From Zootoca vivipara (lineage: Eukaryota): a stretch of DNA of 64,000 bases. The stretch spans positions 31,744,001-31,808,000 of the forward strand of contig NC_083278.1 of NCBI RefSeq assembly GCF_963506605.1, in the 5' to 3' direction. Numbering within the stretch: position 1 is the stretch's first letter; each line of letters starts with the position of its first letter. Below the pieces are notes generated by a model. It was given only the letters and a program-made list of their open reading frames with translations, had not been told where the DNA came from and did no database searches. This document shows, piece by piece, positions 3,119-43,975 of the stretch. The position numbers were made by a program, and so were the translations under genes.

Positions 3119-3507
3119 AGGTAAAAAGGTAAAGGTAAAGGACCCCCGGAGGGTTAGGTCCAGTCAAAGGAGGCTATGGGGTGCGGCACTCATCTCGCTT
3201 TTCAGGCCGAGGGAGCCGGCGTTTGTCCACAGACAGCTTTCTGGGCCATGTGGCCAGCATGACTAAATTGCTTCTGGTGCACGGAGGACCATGACGAGTG
3301 CCAGAGCGCATGAAAATGCCGTTTACCTTCCCACAGTAGCAGTACCTATTTATCTACTTGCATTGGCATGCTTTCAAACTGCTAGGTTGGCAGAAGCTGG
3401 GACAGAGCAATGGGACTCACCCCATCACACAGATTCAAACTGCTGACCTTTTGATCAGCAAGCCCAAGAGGCTGGGTGGTTTAGACCACAGTGCCACTTG
3501 CATCCCT
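3119..3507 (-). mobile_element. Sauria SINE
   Basis: tRNA-like head at the right end, (ACCTTT)n tail, TSD TAAATGTA at 3111-3118 and 3511-3518. Confidence 0.9.
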
Positions 3508-4595: not shown

Positions 4596-4692
4596 AGATT
4601 AAAAAAACATGTTGAGAAAGACTACCAAAATGCAGCTCATAAGCTAGGAGAAGCCCTTACTAATCGGGGCTACCCTGATTACATTATACAAG

Positions 4693-18553: not shown

Positions 18554-18894
18554 TAAACCACTGAGCCTAGGGCTCGCTGATCAGAAGGTTGGCAGTTCGA
18601 ATCCCCATGACAGGGTGAGCTCCCGTTGCTCAGTCCCTGCTCCTGCCCACCTAGCAGTTCGAAAGCACGTCAAAGTGCAAGTAGATAAATAGCACTGCCC
18701 CGGTGGGAAGGTAAACAGCGTTTCTGTGCGCCTGCTCTGGGTCACCAGAAGCGGCTTAGTCATGCTGGCCACATGACCCGGAAGCTGTCTGCGGACAAAC
18801 GCCGGCTCCCTCGGTCTATAGAGCGAGATGAGCGCCGCAACCACAGAGTCGTCCGTGACTGGAACTAACGGTCAGGGGGTACCTTTACCTTTAC
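18554..18894 (+). mobile_element. Sauria SINE, slightly 5'-truncated
   Basis: B-box GTTCGAATCC, conserved body, ACCTTT tail. Confidence 0.9.
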
Positions 18895-19116
18895 TTAAGA
18901 TTCATGCATGCTCATATTTTATTTAACTTGGTAACATAATAAAGGAATAAAGTTGTAAAATCAAAGCAGAGAGATTTCCAGCACTATAAAAAATAGACAA
19001 GAATTTACAAAAGGATGGAAGAATGCTATCACACCAGTGAGACAAAGGGCTCCCTTTTCCATCCCCTTTCAATATTAAAAGACTGCATCAAGTGTTATTT
19101 CGCATTTATTTAAGCC

Positions 19117-27830: not shown

Positions 27831-28682
27831 TTGATTTTGACACCGTCCTCCTGGGTACCTAAATCGCATACACTTAGATGCACACATTATTCATTTCAAT
27901 CCCTTGGTTGCGGGCATTTATGTCTCTGAACAGAGGTGATGTGCTTCTCATGTTTGCCAATGTGTGTAGCAACATTTGCCCCTAACCTTTAGCAGTAGGT
28001 AAAGGTGGTTCTTATTTTTGCTATGTTCTTAGCCTCTATATGATGATGGCACAGCATTTTTCCATGACATCTTAAGGGGGGGGGGGAGGGACGCCACTGT
28101 GGCCACCACAGAAATGTGGTGGCCATTAGCAAAGCAAATAAGAAAGCATTTCCAGCAAGCATGACAATTCACTTATTAAAACATAGCCAGGGCACCAAAA
28201 CAGGACACCAAAATTTCATACCTGTCCCAGTGGAGACATAATAAGGAAACCTACCATCAATAGGCTTAGTGGAGTACATCCAACAACTTATGACTGGCAT
28301 TTACAAAATAATAATAATAATTATTATTATCATAAGGAAATTCAATAAAGAGGTTATATGCTAGGGGAAATATCAAGTAAACAGCCATTCAAAATATTCC
28401 CCAAAACATAATAATATTTCCCAAAACATAATAATATACTTCAGTTAGTTCTATTTGCAACATTTATGTCTACAATGTGGGCATTTTTTTAAAGAGACCT
28501 ACCCTGAGGCTGGCAAAGGTTTATTGCCACTGATATATCTGCTGAAACTTACAGGGAAGAATATTTCACAAACTGCTTTTGTAGGAGTATTTTGGGATCA
28601 AAAACACATTCAATTAAAAACAGAATATCGAACAAGATCATATCCTATTGGAGAAACATATTTCCCTTGCAATGCCTTATTA

Positions 28683-29028
28683 GGTAAAGGGATCCCTGAC
28701 CATTAGGTCAAGTCATGACCGACTCTGGGGTTGCGGCGCTCATCTCACATTATTGGCCGCGGGAGCCAGCGTACAGCTTCCAGGTCATGTGGCCAGCATG
28801 ACAAAGCTGCTTCTGGCAAACCAGAGCAGCACATGGAAACGCCGTTTACCTTCCCACTGTAGCGGTCCCTATTTATCAACTTGCACTTTGACATGCTTTC
28901 GAACTGCTAGGTTGGCAGGAGCTGGGACCGAGCAACGGGAGCTCACCCCATCGCAGGGATTCGAACCGCCAACCTTCTGATCAGCAAGCTCTAGGCTCTG
29001 TGGTTTAACCCACGGTGCCACCTGGGCC
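28683..29028 (-). mobile_element. Sauria SINE (tandem copy 1)
   Basis: Full body; flanked by AATGCCTTATTA. Confidence 0.92.
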
Positions 29029-29040
29029 AATGCCTTATTA

Positions 29041-29407
29041 AAGGTAAAGGTAAAGTGGCCCTTGACCATCAGGTCCAGTCGTGTCCGACTCTGGGGTTGC
29101 GGCGCTCATCTCGCTCTATAGGCCGAGGGAGCCGGCATTTGTCTGCAGACAGCTTCTGGGTCATGTGGCCAGCATGACTAAGCCGCTTCTGGCGAACCAG
29201 AGCAGTGCACGGAAACGCCGTTTACCTTCCCGCCGGAGCGGTCCCTATTTATCTACTTGCACTTTGATGTGCTTTCGAACTGCTAGGTGGGCAGGAGCTG
29301 GGACCGAGGAACGGGAGCTCACCCCGTTGCAGGGATTCGAACCGCCGACCTTCTGATCAGCAAGCCCTAGACTCTGTGGTTTAACCCACAGCGCCACCTG
29401 GGTCCCT
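29041..29407 (-). mobile_element. Sauria SINE (tandem copy 2)
   Basis: Full body with ACCTTT tail; flanked by AATGCCTTATTA. Confidence 0.92.
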
Positions 29408-30499: not shown

Positions 30500-30610
30500 C
30501 ACATACAGAACTGGCATGGATTGGGAATAGACTAATACATCCCATCTGATTTATAGGAGGGAGTCTATGCATATAATCAGCAGACTGAAGTGATTAAACT
30601 TTTTATCACC

Positions 30611-31063
30611 TGTAAGAGAGAGGGCTTGCAGAGAGCAGCCCACTCTGCTTACTTCCATCAGATGGGAGAGCAGCAGCAAGTCTGGGAGTTTAAATCAGGA
30701 ACAGGAAGGGTTAAGACGGGTCCAGGGCTCTGCAGAGTCCTGGTGGCTCAGCTCCAGGCTGGTAGCAGGGAAGCAGGGGAGGAGCTAGCTTCAGCAGGGG
30801 CTGGAAAGGAGGTAGACCGGCACCTCAGGTGCCTGGTTTGGGACCACAGAGGACCCATAGAGCAAGGAGGAGGGGCGTTTGGATGCCCAGGCTTAAAAGG
30901 GGGGTCAGAGCCCACGAGACGCCATTGTGGGCTTCTGCCCCATGCAGAGCAGACATGATTTGAGACATCTCACCACTGTATATAGCATGCACAATAAAAC
31001 TATGAAAATCCAGAGGATGTGTGGAGTGCTTACTCGGGAGTAGCCAACACCCCATCTGTGACA
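30611..31063 (+). repeat. 5' LTR
   Basis: TGTAAG...GTGACA; TATA-like TTAAAA at 30893; AATAAA at 30993. Confidence 0.95.
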
Positions 31064-31065
31064 GC

Positions 31066-31076
31066 AAGCCCACAAT
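31066..31076 (+). promoter_or_regulatory. Self-priming primer binding site
   Basis: AAGCCCACAAT is the exact complement of ATTGTGGGCTT at 30924-30934, the predicted transcript 5' end. Confidence 0.75.
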
Positions 31077-31411
31077 CTTTTGATGGCTACCCCGAGGGAA
31101 GAGGGCTGCAAATGTAGCAGCCGGCATGAAGTTGGCAGCATCTAAAGCAGAAGAGAGAGATGCCAAGGGAGGATTGGCATGTGTGAGGGGAGTAGCAGAG
31201 AGCAAGCTGCAGCCAGCACCCTGCAACTATGGAACGGCTCAAGCACCAGGTAGGCACCCAGGCACAGGGGAAGCCAAGCTTAGTGAACCGAGCAGCTCTG
31301 AACACAGCCAAGCCGGAGGAGCGGAGGCTGGACAAGCAGAGAGGACACTCGGGACGGGCCAGCACTTTGTAGGGCGACCCTCAGCACAAGCTGGCTCTAA
31401 GACTGAGAGGC

Positions 31412-33016
31412 ATGGTGGCGTGGAAGTGCAGGAGGCTGAGAGGCGAGTCCGGGCAGAGGGGACAGACGGAGGGGAAAGGCAGCGGCCACAAGTTCCCATA
31501 CAGTCCCGGGGAGGCAGCTGCAGCACAGCACAGCCCCCTCCAGCCAGATGTGATGCAGAGGGACAAAGCCCGCGCGCGGGTACTTTCAAACGCTGACGCG
31601 GGAAAACAAAGGGAAGAGAAAGGCGGGAGATGCCTTTACAATGCACCCAGCCACTGGGTGGAACACTGCCCCCAGCGGAAGGAATGGCGAGAGCAGGCAG
31701 GCACAGACACAAGCCTGGATGCCAGATCAGGAGGGGAGGGGCCAGGCAGAGCACCAACAACTGAGCCCTCCTGTAACACCCCACAGCACGACAAAGAGAT
31801 GGAAGTAAGTCTGCAGCTGCCAAGAGGCCAGACCCAGGAGACAGTCGGGCTTCTCTGCAGGGGCAGCAGCAATGATTTCCTATCGGTGGACTTTGCTAGG
31901 CAGAATCAGATTCCCCTTTTCCCAAGGAAGCTTCCCATGAGCGTCTCGGCCATAGACGGCAGGGAATTGCAGGAGGGTGAGGTCACGCAACAGACCCCCT
32001 CTCGGAAGATGACAGTGAACAAGCACGCAGAAGTGCTAGCTTTGGACTTAATGGACAATGACCCTGTGGGCAGCCAGCGCCGGGGAGATCTCACCTTTGG
32101 AGATGCAGACGGCAAGGAGCACTGCAGGAAAGAAGGAGAATCCTCAGGATCGCACCACATCAGCTCCCCAGGCGGATGGAACGACGCAGAGGCGGGGATG
32201 CAGGAAGAGAAACTGAGCCAACTCACCAAAGAGGACACTTTTACCCAGAACATACGGAGGGACTTGAGGGAGGGAGAGGGGGCAGGGGAAGGGCTTGCAG
32301 AGAAAGAGGGGTTACTCTTTAGCAATGATGCCCGGTATATGCCCCAGGACTCCCTCAGAGGGAAGATTCTCAGGCAATATCATGACAACCCCACGGAGGG
32401 GCATGCAGTACATGTCTTCACGAGGCTCACACCCAGTAAGGCCAGTCTTGGGCGAAACCCCAGAGCCTTCCCAGAGCAGGGGGAGGGGGAGATTGGGGGA
32501 CCACCTATTGAGGCATGGGGTGAGAGGAGGGAGACAGTACACCAACAACTGGATGGAGACGTGGCAAGGGGCAATGAGGCTTACAAGGAGGGGGCAGACC
32601 ATCACAGGGGACTGGAGAAGGTCTTCCACGGAGGGGACAGGGTCTGGCTGTGGTCAGAAGGCCTTCCCATGGGAGGAAGGGGGAAGAAGCTGGCACCCAG
32701 AAGGCTGGGGCCCTTCAAGGTTCTGACACAGATCAACCCTGTCACCTTCAGGGGGGAAGTACCTACAGCAAGAAAGGTCCATCCCGTGGGTCACAGGTCT
32801 TTGCTCTCACACTTCAGGGAAAGCCCAAGGTTCAGAGGACATGACACACATCCAACACAAGACGCTGACAGGAGGGAGGGGGAGGAAATCACACAAAAGA
32901 CACTAGACAGAAGGGTGGAGGGAGAAGGCAGCCAAGAGGTTCCAGAAAGAAAGGAAGAGGAGGAGGTCTACAGTGCCACAGCGAGCCCGGGCTCCCGAAG
33001 GGGGGAGGGGGGTTAA
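31412..33016 (+). CDS. Minimised Gypsy gag-pro-integrase fusion ORF, 534 aa, catalytically defective
   Basis: Broken Zn knuckle CLY-NAPSHWVEHC, protease-like LLCRGSSNDF, integrase N-terminal HDNPTEGH, GPF motif LGPFKV...VHPVGH; no RT, RNase H or DDE core. Confidence 0.7.
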   Translation: MVAWKCRRLRGESGQRGQTEGKGSGHKFPYSPGEAAAAQHSPLQPDVMQRDKARARVLSNADAGKQREEKGGRCLYNAPSHWVEHCPQRKEWREQAGTDTSLDARSGGEGPGRAPTTEPSCNTPQHDKEMEVSLQLPRGQTQETVGLLCRGSSNDFLSVDFARQNQIPLFPRKLPMSVSAIDGRELQEGEVTQQTPSRKMTVNKHAEVLALDLMDNDPVGSQRRGDLTFGDADGKEHCRKEGESSGSHHISSPGGWNDAEAGMQEEKLSQLTKEDTFTQNIRRDLREGEGAGEGLAEKEGLLFSNDARYMPQDSLRGKILRQYHDNPTEGHAVHVFTRLTPSKASLGRNPRAFPEQGEGEIGGPPIEAWGERRETVHQQLDGDVARGNEAYKEGADHHRGLEKVFHGGDRVWLWSEGLPMGGRGKKLAPRRLGPFKVLTQINPVTFRGEVPTARKVHPVGHRSLLSHFRESPRFRGHDTHPTQDADRREGEEITQKTLDRRVEGEGSQEVPERKEEEEVYSATASPGSRRGEGG

Positions 33017-33435
33017 AATGTCTGATGGCCAGGCAGGACACTCCTGCTTCCCAAAACGCAGAGGCACCTATGCACACCATGCAAGGGGAGGGCCGCACAC
33101 TGGAACTGCACGCTCCTTTCTCCCACAGATCCGAACCACCACATGTCAGTAGCACAGGGGACACAGAGGGGGAGGGCGATCCCAGGTGGGGAGCTTGGGA
33201 GACGCAGACCCAAGGAGCCCTCCGGGAATCGGAAGCAATTGTCCAGAGAGAGGAGGAGGATGACAACGGAGGGAACTACACGGACCAGCCACCCAGCACC
33301 AACTGGGAACAGGATTTTACACACACTACAGCAGAGGAGGAAGACCTGTCAGGCTTCCAGCCCTCTTTACAGACATCAGACCAGGCAACCCAGGCCTCAG
33401 AAAGGGGGGAGGGGGGAGCCTGGAGGGGGAGTGGA

Positions 33436-33888
33436 TGTAAGAGAGAGGGCTTGCAGAGAGCAGCCCACTCTGCTTACTTCCATCAGATGGGAGAGCAGCA
33501 GCAAGTCTGGGAGTTTAAATCAGGAACAGGAAGGGTTAAGACGGGTCCAGGGCTCTGCAGAGTCCTGGTGGCTCAGCTCCAGGCTGGTAGCAGGGAAGCA
33601 GGGGAGGAGCTAGCTTCAGCAGGGGCTGGAAAGGAGGTAGACCGGCACCTCAGGAGCCTGGTTTGGGACCACAGAGGACTCATAGAGCAAGGAGGAGGGG
33701 CGTTTGGATGCCCAGGCTTAAAAGGGGGGTCAGAGCCCACGAGACGCCATTGTGGGCTTCTGCCCCATGCAGAGCAGACATGATTTGAGACATCTCACCA
33801 CTGTATATAGCATGCACAATAAAACTATGAAAATCCAGAGGATGTGTGGAGTGCTTACTCGGGAGTAGCCAACACCCCATCTGTGACA
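33436..33888 (+). repeat. 3' LTR
   Basis: Differs from the 5' LTR at two positions by eye; preceded by PPT GGAGGGGGAGTGGA. Confidence 0.95.
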
Positions 33889-35861
33889 TCACCATTCCAT
33901 TCTGTGGGTGGTAGATCATTGGTTTGAACGCTACCCCACAGAGAAAAGTTCCTGAACACAGATTCATAGTGAATCTGGCTACTGAACGCTTCTCCCTGCT
34001 AAAGGGCCCTATGCATATTATTGTAATTATGCTGCATGATTCATGCAATTTGACTCTTTATTATTCGGGGTTGGCCTGTCCCTGGACAGTTGAGGTTGTG
34101 GACAGGAAATGGTTAAAGTGCAAAGACTCTGTAGAGTCACCCTGAAAATTCAATATCTTTTGCTGAATTTTAATACATTAGCTATTCCTCTCCCACCCAG
34201 CTCTAGGAAGATAAACCTGTGATATTGTTTTCTTTTTGCTATTTGGTTTATGTTTACAAAGTATTTAAAATGTCAGTTTCATCGATTCTGTCTGTTTTAC
34301 GTGGATCATTTTGTTGGGAACTGCAGTTACTGCTGTTGGGGGGGGGGAGCTTCACATTTTGAAAATGTTGTCAAATCAGTTCTCAGTAGCAACTATTGTT
34401 TAATAGGCATGAAAAGAAGAGAATGCTCCTATAGGGAAGTCTTGTTCATTTTGAATCTGATAGTAAAGAGAGGGATTTGTTGAGTGTCTCTAGTCAGGAG
34501 TTATCAAAGACGGCATTCAAGGTAAGCCTTTATTCTCACATCAGTGAGAGAACTGTACAGTTGAGGTGTAATTGAAGGGATGTAGTGATTAACATGTTCT
34601 TAAAGGTCCTAGTCCTCGGTTGTGTAGCTGGTGTGGTAGAGCAAAAGACATTGGTTTGCCCTTAATTCTGCATTTCAAGAGGGCCACAATCATTGCAAAG
34701 AAAAAGACACACCCTATTTCTTCACAATTGCTATCTATTACTTCATTGGATGGTGCTTAATTTAATGACTCAATATTTTTTCCCTGCCTGCAAATATTTG
34801 ATTTTTTTTCAGAACTGATGGAGAAAACAAGGGGCTCTGAATGGAATTAAAATCAACGTACATGTATGAAGTATCCCCCCAAAGAAGCTTTACTATCTGT
34901 TGTACTAACTACGACAAAATGAGGCATGACCATTCACACAAAGCCATCAGCTCTCAAATCCACATGATGAAGCTTAATTCCTTTTAATGGCTTTAGGATT
35001 GAAGCATTAGATGAGCAATTCCAGAGAGTACACATAATCATGGTTATCACCACCGTTTTCTATTTGTGGCGCCTTTTATTCTTGTTCTTACTTTTTAAAT
35101 GCAAGAAGATACCATGACTTATCAAGGCAAATGCCTCCCATTTATCAGTACTCTTCCTAAATTACCAAGGCTCAATTTGAATGCTGAAAAGTTGTTCGGG
35201 GTGTTTGGGAAGCTTATGGAAACACATAATGAAGTGGTACAGTAACTTGTCCATATGGGCTGAAGAATTGGGACACTGAAGCCTATCTCACCCCATTTGC
35301 TCTCAATCTGTAGTTCAATGTGAATTGTTTGCATGAGAGATTTGAAAGTGCAATGGTTGGTGGCAACTCTCCCTACAAAAGAGGAAAAAACAGAGTTTCC
35401 ACTATTGCCTTCCCAATAACTGAAAACTTCCCAAGTAGATGGTTTAGGTTTTTTACAGCAGTATAAAAGAAGCAGTTTGTTCATCTCCCCACCCCCTGCA
35501 GCCCTAGGGGGACCCACTGATAACCAATCAAATTAGTATTGCATTCTATGCTTTATGGGGGGGGGGGTTAAAGTGACAAAAGCACATTTTCTCATGTCCC
35601 TGTTTTGCTTAAAATAGATGTTCAGCTAATCTGTATTTATACCAGAGAATAAAATCACATTTCTCAAGACATGATACTATAATTAACTTATTTGCACACT
35701 GCATATAGTCAACTCTCATTAACTAATGAAATGCATCGGATATGTTTGCACTGTATGAGTACGTTCCTGTGAAAGTAACCCTTTGGAAGCCAGTTGTCAC
35801 GAAGCCACAATGGGCAATAAAGGATTTGTGCAAGAATGGTACCATTGACCTAATCACTAAT

Positions 35862-40451: not shown

Positions 40452-40813
40452 AAGGTAAAGGTAAGTCCAGTCAAACTTGACTATGGGATGCAGTGCTCAT
40501 CTAGCTTCAGGCCGACGGAGCTGGTGTTTCTCCACAGACAACTTTCTGGGTCATGTGGCCAGCATGACTAAACCTCTTCTGGCGCAACAGGACACTGTGA
40601 CGGAAGCCAGAGCACACAGAAATGCCATTTACCTTACCTCTGCAGCAGTACCTGTTTATCTACTTGCACTGGTGTGCTTTCGAACTGCTAGGTTGGCAGG
40701 AGCTGGGACAGAGCAACAGGAGCTCACTCCATCGTGCGGATTCAAACTGCTGACCTTCCGATCAGCAAGCCCAAGAGGCTCAGTGGTTTAGACCACAGCG
40801 CCAGCCATGTCCC
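40452..40813 (-). mobile_element. Sauria SINE
   Basis: Full body; imperfect TSD ATTTGGTCAGG / ATTTGTTCAGG. Confidence 0.88.
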
Positions 40814-43047: not shown

Positions 43048-43975
43048 GCCTGGATAGCGTAGTTGGATAGAGTGTGGTGCTGATAAATCAGGTCCTTCCC
43101 TTAAGAGGGCACGTGTTGCGGTGAGGCCTGGCAACCAAACCCTTGTGTTTTGGGTGGGTATGATTGGATAGCCACAACACCCAATTGGTAGGTCCCTTGA
43201 TGCAGGGTTCAATCAGGCCAATGGGACGCAGGCTATTCGGGTCAAGGGACCTACATATACCCATGCATGTGACCCAGAGCTTCCTCTTTCGGCATTTTGC
43301 ATCGGAACACCCACCTACCTCTCCCTACTTTTAGGGCTTTTGCGATTGACCTTGTTATGCCGCCGTGTGTCGTCTGTCGTTGGGACAGGGGCACAGCAGG
43401 GATTTTTCCCTCTTGACTGATTGGCTGGTGCCATTTGGGTTTCGCCTGCCGCGTAGCAAATCGTCACAACTTGTAAGTTTGTGGATAGGCTCTGTTTCAG
43501 GTGATAGGGATGGAGGAGTGCTCTCACCATCCCTATGTGAAGGGTATTCCGATAAAGGAATCCAAAGACTCAATGGTTTGGTCAACCCTGTGAGGGGGTT
43601 GTGCCTGTGCCTGAGTCTAGGGGGACTTCTGGGTGGTGGACATAGCATGTTCCTGGCTTTCCACCTATCCAGGTGTTCACCCTAGGCTGACCTATGATGG
43701 AGCTCTGGGTTAGTGCTACCTGCCACAGTGCAGGGAGCTAGTCGAACCAGAGCCTATGCAACCACTCACTTGGTGTAATCAATAAAGGTGTGGCCTAAAT
43801 TCTGCCAAAAACCAAACCAAAATTTGAGTCTTGTCTGAATTTATTTAAGGGGAAGGTTTAAAGCTTGCATGTTCAATCCCTGTATCGAACAGCTGCATAT
43901 TCCTGCATTGCAGGGGGTTGGACTAGATTATCCTCAGGGTCTCTTCCAACACTACAATTCACAAGTCTATGATTC
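43048..43975 (+). mobile_element. tRNA-derived SINE with CR1-type tail, split by the LTR-like insertion
   Basis: A-box half at 43048-43093; B-box half and GGTTGGACTAGAT...CTTCCAAC...CTATGATTC tail at 43865-43975. Confidence 0.75.
43093..43863 (+). mobile_element. Unclassified LTR-like element, copy 2
   Basis: Collinear with 2233-3008. Confidence 0.75.

Follow-up and report, generated by a model that had tools for sequence, protein, structure and literature searches.

A stop-free gag-pol frame in a young non-autonomous Ty3/Gypsy family, perhaps kept open for ribosome transit rather than for its protein

The long open reading frame near the middle of the window (the whole analysed stretch of 64,000 nucleotides) belongs to a young, non-autonomous retrotransposon family with many dispersed copies that share common deletions. 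The reading that we favour, at a probability of roughly 0.55, is that stops are kept out of the gutted gag-pol frame of this family for the sake of ribosome transit to the 3′ LTR, and not for the protein sequence that it encodes. We are evenly divided on the more specific proposal that the reading frame itself is a cis-element, in which the deletions, a compensating frameshift and the exchange of a −1 site for a fusion would all have been filtered for ribosome access to the 3′ LTR while the protein decayed. The frame is conserved; the amino-acid sequence largely is not, and its change is near neutral.

The ORF lies in a non-autonomous chromoviral Ty3/Gypsy LTR element of the Tf1/sushi type, 3.28 kb in length (30611–33888; Table 1). 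TG...CA LTRs, a 5-bp target-site duplication (TSD) and a polypurine tract (PPT) are all present, and by its structure the element appears to be a derivative of the Tf1/sushi lineage. Its primer-binding site (PBS) is, by its pattern of complementarity, of the self-priming type described for Tf1/sushi elements in PMC6317226: the 11-nt self-primer/PBS complement was unchanged in 89 of 98 copies, with a compensatory change in one, and both the autonomous family and copy L118 show changes in the self-primer that match changes in the PBS. The element also has the SH3/GPF module and chromodomain of Tf1/sushi elements, and subfamily C, like the autonomous family, carries the −1 heptamer and stem. Unlike Tf1/sushi elements, it lacks RT, RNase H, the DDE core and capsid, and its protease is not intact. 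A G-run at 33001–33013 was considered as a second PPT and rejected, since it aligns within the chromodomain.

Table 1 Features of the element in the window copy
Feature	Position	Strand	Remarks
Target-site duplication, 5 bp, TCACC	left 30606..30610; right 33889-33893	+	
5′ LTR	30611..31063	+	TG...CA, 453 nt; 2 mismatches to 3′ LTR
Self-primer, 11 nt, PBS-complementary	30924..30934	+	inferred transcript 5′ end
Primer-binding site, self-priming type	31066..31076	+	
Upstream ORF, 156 aa	31126..31596	+	starts at likely gag ATG homologue (homology inferred from position and local sequence); overlaps start of long ORF
TAG, upstream bound of long frame in subfamilies A/B	31370..31372	+	absent in subfamily C
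Long ORF, window copy, 534 codons	31412..33016	+	mostly 673-790 codons in other copies
Gag C-terminal remnant, broken CCHC knuckle	31496..31687	+	42% aa identity to autonomous family
gag/pol frame junction	31705..31710	+	net 41-nt deletion took G GGA AAC −1 frameshift site and joined frames
Protease remnant	31799..32041	+	catalytic Asp replaced; 15-codon in-frame deletion after
Post-protease linker and in-frame junction	32057..32155	+	RT and RNase H gone, ~486 codons
Pre-integrase linker and integrase zinc finger start	32156..32404	+	in-frame junction; rest of finger and DDE core gone, 192 codons
Integrase C-terminus with SH3/GPF module	32402..32836	+	57% aa identity to autonomous family
Degenerate chromodomain	32945..33147	+	frame split at G-run 33001-33013 in window copy
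Acidic tail, homologue of autonomous family's pol tail	33150..33400	+	in frame in most copies
Polypurine tract	33422..33435	+	
3′ LTR	33436..33888	+	AATAAA 33818-33823; family ORF stops at 33438, 33611, 33781 or 33786

The window copy has no stop over 31373–33016 and an ATG at 31412, which confirms the frame of 534 codons reported in a preliminary description of the sequence. The longest plus-strand frame, 547 codons, exceeded every frame found in 2000 mononucleotide shuffles (at most 297 codons) and in 1000 dinucleotide shuffles (at most 415). In a sister copy, the two alternative frames contain 16 and 18 stops over 675 codons. Composition was therefore ruled out as the source of the ORF. As the extent of the ORF, however, 534 codons applies to the window copy and not to the family. 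Extra G at 33006 was present in all of the first 29 other copies retrieved (+1 in 28, +3 in the last) and in 35 of 38 RNA reads of run X17; only a minority stops at 33014, and the 534-codon length is peculiar to this copy. In most copies the frame reaches or enters the 3′ LTR and takes in the acidic tail and the entire degenerate chromodomain, of which only a possible start had been recognized. Frames of 616–790 codons were read in 26 of 30 copies, and 36 of 41 copies, a sample picked mainly by LTR pattern, were open from 31412 beyond 33000. Across all copies the ORF ends mostly at the four positions given in Table 1, in three different 3′ LTR frames; the C-terminus differs freely between copies, and indels adjoin the PPT. 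Pol of the autonomous relative likewise crosses the acidic tail into its LTR.

Alignment to the autonomous polyprotein of the same genome placed all significant matches (E < 1e-15) in one frame and in colinear order (gag-PR-(RT-RH)-IN with SH3/GPF and chromodomain). The matched remnants comprise the gag C-terminus with the knuckle, the protease, the pre-integrase linker with the start of the zinc finger, the integrase C-terminus with SH3, which Pfam recognized as SH3_Tf2-1 (E 4.6e-10), and the chromodomain. The alignment thus upholds the proposals that both ends of the integrase share a frame with the gag and protease remnants, that deletions have removed RT, RNase H and the DDE core, and that the protease has lost its catalytic Asp and a further stretch in frame; no match to capsid was found in the element. 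The Gag knuckle, said to have one Cys codon missing, does have one codon fewer, but the first Cys is retained, one codon following it has been lost and Tyr stands in place of the second Cys. The statement that all deletion junctions preserve the frame is correct for those at RT/RNase H, DDE core and protease, but the gag-pro join is not a multiple of three (3n) and replaces a −1 frameshift of the parent; nor is every lesion frame-preserving, since the 5′ gag remnant is severed by frameshifts and the TAG at 31370. Residues have decayed strongly. Of 112 residues that do not vary between two autonomous families and a fish element, 42 are changed in this element, compared with 8 changed only in the autonomous (likely helper) family. 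The integrase C-terminus with SH3 (IN-C/SH3) is the best-kept part, with 9 of 40 invariant residues changed.

The subfamilies record how the frame was altered. Subfamily C, a minor group with 8 pattern matches, retains the likely gag ATG (31126), an open mini-gag, the stem and the −1 heptamer in the right phase (GGGAAAC in 6 and GGGAAAT in 2 of the 8). Its 247-codon mini-gag is open in 5 of 5 copies of the first set and in L258, and broken in L264 and L265; its pol frames span 626–743 codons in 4 of 5 copies. The 41-nt segment present in subfamily C is also held by L240, an old copy without LTRs, and is therefore ancestral. In the main subfamilies, A and B, the frameshift site was lost through the net 41-nt deletion that fuses the gag and pol frames; nowhere else does a non-3n deletion leave the frame intact. 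Two further differences set A/B apart from C: 2 nt are deleted near 31440, and a TGA directly behind ATG 31412 has become TGG. The loss of 1 nt near 31394 is common to all, and in subfamily C it ties the gag ATG to gag-C via a stretch in an alternative frame with weak homology. The TAG at 31370 is fixed in A/B, 11 AUGs lie between the inferred 5′ end and 31412, and most A/B copies carry the overlapping upstream ORF. One 3-copy lineage has a 537-nt deletion that starts in the leader and removes all of gag-C.

Substitutions were compared among 97 copies with the window copy as reference. Duplicates, the chimeric or poorly aligned copies L139, L218-220, L230, L232, L234 and L236, and copy L091 were left out, as was every variant at most 8 nt from an indel. 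The 156 variants present in at least 3 copies comprised 52 synonymous, 104 nonsynonymous and 0 stop changes, against 43.7, 107.3 and 5.0 expected (stops, P=0.005), while the control frames gained 7 and 7 new stops; this cut-off was chosen after a first, smaller pass, in which 78 copies showed 1 stop against 4.1 expected (P=0.069, not significant). All 196 shared variants included 1 stop, present in 2 copies, against 6.2 expected (P=0.012), and private variants 4 against 10.1 (P=0.024). The dN/dS ratio (ω) was 0.81 (P=0.08) for variants in at least 3 copies and 1.01 for private ones. Shared indels in the ORF core and tail were 3n in 8 of 12 cases, counting the 537-nt deletion; two more correspond to the change of subfamily architecture, and the remaining two break the frame, one by −1 at 31514 and the other by +1 at 32826, each of them in 2 copies. 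The corresponding numbers were 9 of 24 for private ORF indels and 1 of 7 for shared LTR indels (one-sided Fisher P 0.013–0.04). A +2 variant of the G-run, with a stop at 33150, occurs in 6 copies, and L240 has 4 stops and a frameshift. Copies L218-L237 had been picked for short frames, and broken copies are therefore over-represented in the 98. The stop and indel tests, which do not depend on how the ORF was picked, support selection for an open frame, and the earlier suggestion of selection for translatability stands in part: propagated substitutions carry no stops, propagated indels are mostly 3n, and L240 has decayed.

We consider it improbable that there was no selection at all, that is, that the open frame descends from a few master copies whose junctions fell in frame by luck and that the family was noticed for this reason. 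The copies are young, with identical LTRs in 56 of 97, amino-acid change is near neutral and upstream AUGs are many; moreover, wheat Angela non-autonomous elements, as reported in PMC9744471, spread despite many stops and frameshifts, so that an ORF is not generally needed. Chance alone, however, sits poorly with the absence of stops among propagated variants, and with the frameshift signal, which was kept and later replaced by a deletion of exactly the phase that keeps the frame. It also leaves unexplained a frame that stayed stop-free at dS ~1.6 and dN 0.45 from the nearest autonomous family: a rough neutral calculation for this long branch gave 8–12 expected stops, on the assumptions that change was neutral once function had been lost and that no closer parent was missed in sampling, and none was seen.

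The main rival reading, which we consider less likely and which is suggested by analogy with the mouse IAP 1-delta-1 (I-delta-1) element, is that the mini Gag-Pol protein acts in cis, its nascent chain recruiting its own RNA into helper particles. Either the basic nucleocapsid remnant might bind that RNA or the integrase SH3/GPF module might bind helper proteins. Judging by its title, Saito et al. 2008 also deals with an element of this type. As here, IAP 1-delta-1 gained an in-frame gag-pol fusion ORF by internal deletion and needs a helper in trans; in this family the fusion ORF belongs to subfamilies A/B and includes C-terminal gag only. A fusion protein acting in cis is reported for IAP 1-delta-1 in PMC6466679 and PMC7411935, and provides the precedent. 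Between subfamilies, ω was 0.66–0.92 overall, 0.36–0.6 in gag-C and 1.0–1.6 in the protease (0.55 for one pair), although these values are noisy, control frames spanning 0.47–1.04. The low gag-C values favor a cis-acting protein and are compatible with some protein-level constraint, as is an excess of shared synonymous variants in gag-C (17 vs 11.8 expected) and in IN-C/SH3 (13 vs 8.9), the latter being the best-preserved part. On the other side, the capsid domain is missing and the knuckle broken, SH3 Leu and Phe residues have become Gly, overall ω is not significantly below 1, and the mini-gag of subfamily C tolerates a scrambled alternative-frame stretch; the lineage without any gag-C has even reached three sites with separate TSDs. 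IAP belongs to the betaretrovirus-like ERVs and carries a single 1.9-kb deletion, whereas the present family is Gypsy with several separate deletions. Unlike IAP 1-delta-1 it is without capsid, its residues have decayed strongly and its dN/dS is near neutral, which argues for the frame rather than the protein. With the same ω of 0.81, the variable C-terminus in any of three LTR frames and the loss of gag-C in the 3-copy lineage, a novel protein, the other explanation offered earlier, is weakly supported.

An abundant autonomous Gypsy family had an identical integrase core in 150 of 150 scored matches. In 18 of its 20 copies, pol follows gag and G GGA AAC in the −1 arrangement, and a 10-bp stem lies downstream of the heptamer. 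This arrangement ruled out stop-codon readthrough, seen in L061, as the gag-pol mechanism of the parent. Small indels at the gag-pol junction fuse the frames or leave one in-frame stop in the autonomous copies L056, L061, L062 and L063, a minority state found by a search that favors long frames. Both families have an 11-nt LTR/PBS complement of different but covarying sequence, and their U5/PBS regions are only 73–77% identical. One copy, L146 (G000:C6:54170870-54176205), carries the whole 5′ LTR of the autonomous family (99.5% identical) and its own 3′ LTR, with the changeover exactly at the PBS and a perfect TSD. It is likely the product of an intermolecular plus-strand transfer in a shared particle, and this single recombinant points to the abundant autonomous family as the likely helper. 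Copy L023 is nested within an element of the helper family. Most of L031-L059 represent another young autonomous Gypsy family, which has pol frames of 1369 aa and is less closely related to the element.

Ribosome transit to the 3′ LTR could then operate as follows. The RNA of the element would be packaged together with that of the helper, as the recombinant L146 suggests. In subfamily C the long frame would be translated by −1 frameshifting from the gag ATG, and in A/B by leaky scanning or reinitiation at 31412; otherwise translation would end near 31594 and leave a 3′ UTR of more than 2 kb. The benefit may be escape from the nonsense-mediated decay (NMD) that acts on long 3′ UTRs, translation-coupled packaging, or both. 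According to PMC7566565, NMD can be inhibited by readthrough or frameshifting of low efficiency. Given the 11 AUGs before 31412 and the overlapping upstream ORF in most A/B copies, initiation of the long frame should be rare. These upstream AUGs, the stop and frameshifts in 5′ gag, some spread of frame-breaking changes, the deficit of stops among private variants and the low gag-C ratios given above are points against ribosome transit.

About 145 relatives of the element were found in the genome. DNA matches were 98–100% identical in all 40 scored of 644 candidates, and a 36-nt U5 pattern had 251 exact matches. A protein probe gave at least 145 family-type matches, some of them chimeric carriers, among 150 scored of 2700 candidates, after which identity drops to 62%; these next matches (61–62%) resemble older copies of the same autonomous family, and no closer parent was found among the best 150 of the 2700. 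No autonomous element with the same LTR was present among 54 loci from the first 100 of the 251 LTR-pattern matches, checked alongside 4 autonomous loci; most of the single LTRs there are solo LTRs. L091, with a 7.8-kb LTR pair, was rejected as an autonomous partner, being a family copy into which ~5 kb of a different, RT-bearing element has inserted. Loci with the divergent LTR type of L101 were mostly solo LTRs, with one full and one partial element in 20 loci.

Domestication by the host as a PEG10/RTL-like gene is very improbable. The family has the PEG10 lineage and frameshift type in common with such genes, the PEG10 site presumably being of the same G GGA AAC type as that of the parent, and the previously drawn link to PEG10/RTL holds for lineage only, as nothing points to domestication. 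One copy is annotated at NCBI as an uncharacterized 673-aa protein (P0009), and family RNA is present: of the three raw RNA runs mapped, run X17 gave 736 reads, nearly all in sense orientation if a usual stranded library is assumed. Against domestication, copies are dispersed, with perfect TSDs in 89 of 98, and capsid is missing. The private allele of the window copy was in no read at several well-covered sites, and the RNA must therefore come from other copies. The empty site of copy L256 (L256:144-3494) is crossed by four RNA reads from two runs; this insertion is therefore polymorphic and absent in some individuals. No splice joints were found inside the element in the RNA reads, at low depth. 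Domesticated PEG10/RTL (SIRH) genes are single fixed loci without LTRs, under purifying selection and with capsid kept, whereas this family has dispersed copies with LTRs and near-neutral ratios between subfamilies.

Defective-interfering RNAs of MHV and equine arteritis virus are said, judging by the titles of van der Most 1995 and Molenkamp 2000, to keep an open frame of dispensable sequence, as this family does; they are short-lived RNA replicons, whereas this family is a germline retrotransposon with a long substitution record. Wheat Angela, Sabrina and Quinta are described as helper-dependent LTR families co-evolving with autonomous partners (PMC9744471, PMC11302176). The wheat elements either retain an intact GAG or have decayed and contain many stops, in contrast to the stop-free frame of non-functional remnants found here. 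In listings of titles, we found no description of this family or of a comparable Gypsy case. Non-autonomous LTR elements are commonly read as non-coding or as Gag donors. If the frame is selected only for end-to-end translation, an intact transposon ORF would not prove that a protein works or has been domesticated. The natural contrasts in this family (frameshift kept or fused, frame open or stop-bearing, with a helper identified by recombination) make NMD or translation-coupled packaging testable as a gate of LTR trans-mobilisation.

A 1.2-kb piece of the family (window 30700–30870 plus 32269–33275; shorter in L232) with common foreign flanks occurs at no fewer than 7 loci (L218-L220, L230, L232, L236 and L251). 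In L218 and L251 its frame continues into an ERV-like RT-connection, followed in L251 by RNase H and an integrase zinc finger; by its sequence, the piece is a Gypsy-to-ERV capture in frame at the 3′ junction. Elsewhere in the window, a frame at 4648–5208 matches GIY-YIG weakly, at an E value of 1.4e-4 that lies narrowly below the cut-off, and we take it to be probably a fragment of a Penelope-like element. A ~700-nt repeat in two copies 89–92% alike (~2278–2995 and 43137–43863), with AATAAA near its end, possibly represents solo LTRs of another family. SINE-like repeats, which we assume from their appearance to be Sauria SINEs, lie at 28674–29402, 3125–3496, 18554–18896 and 40506–40803, two of them in tandem ~1.2 kb upstream of the element.
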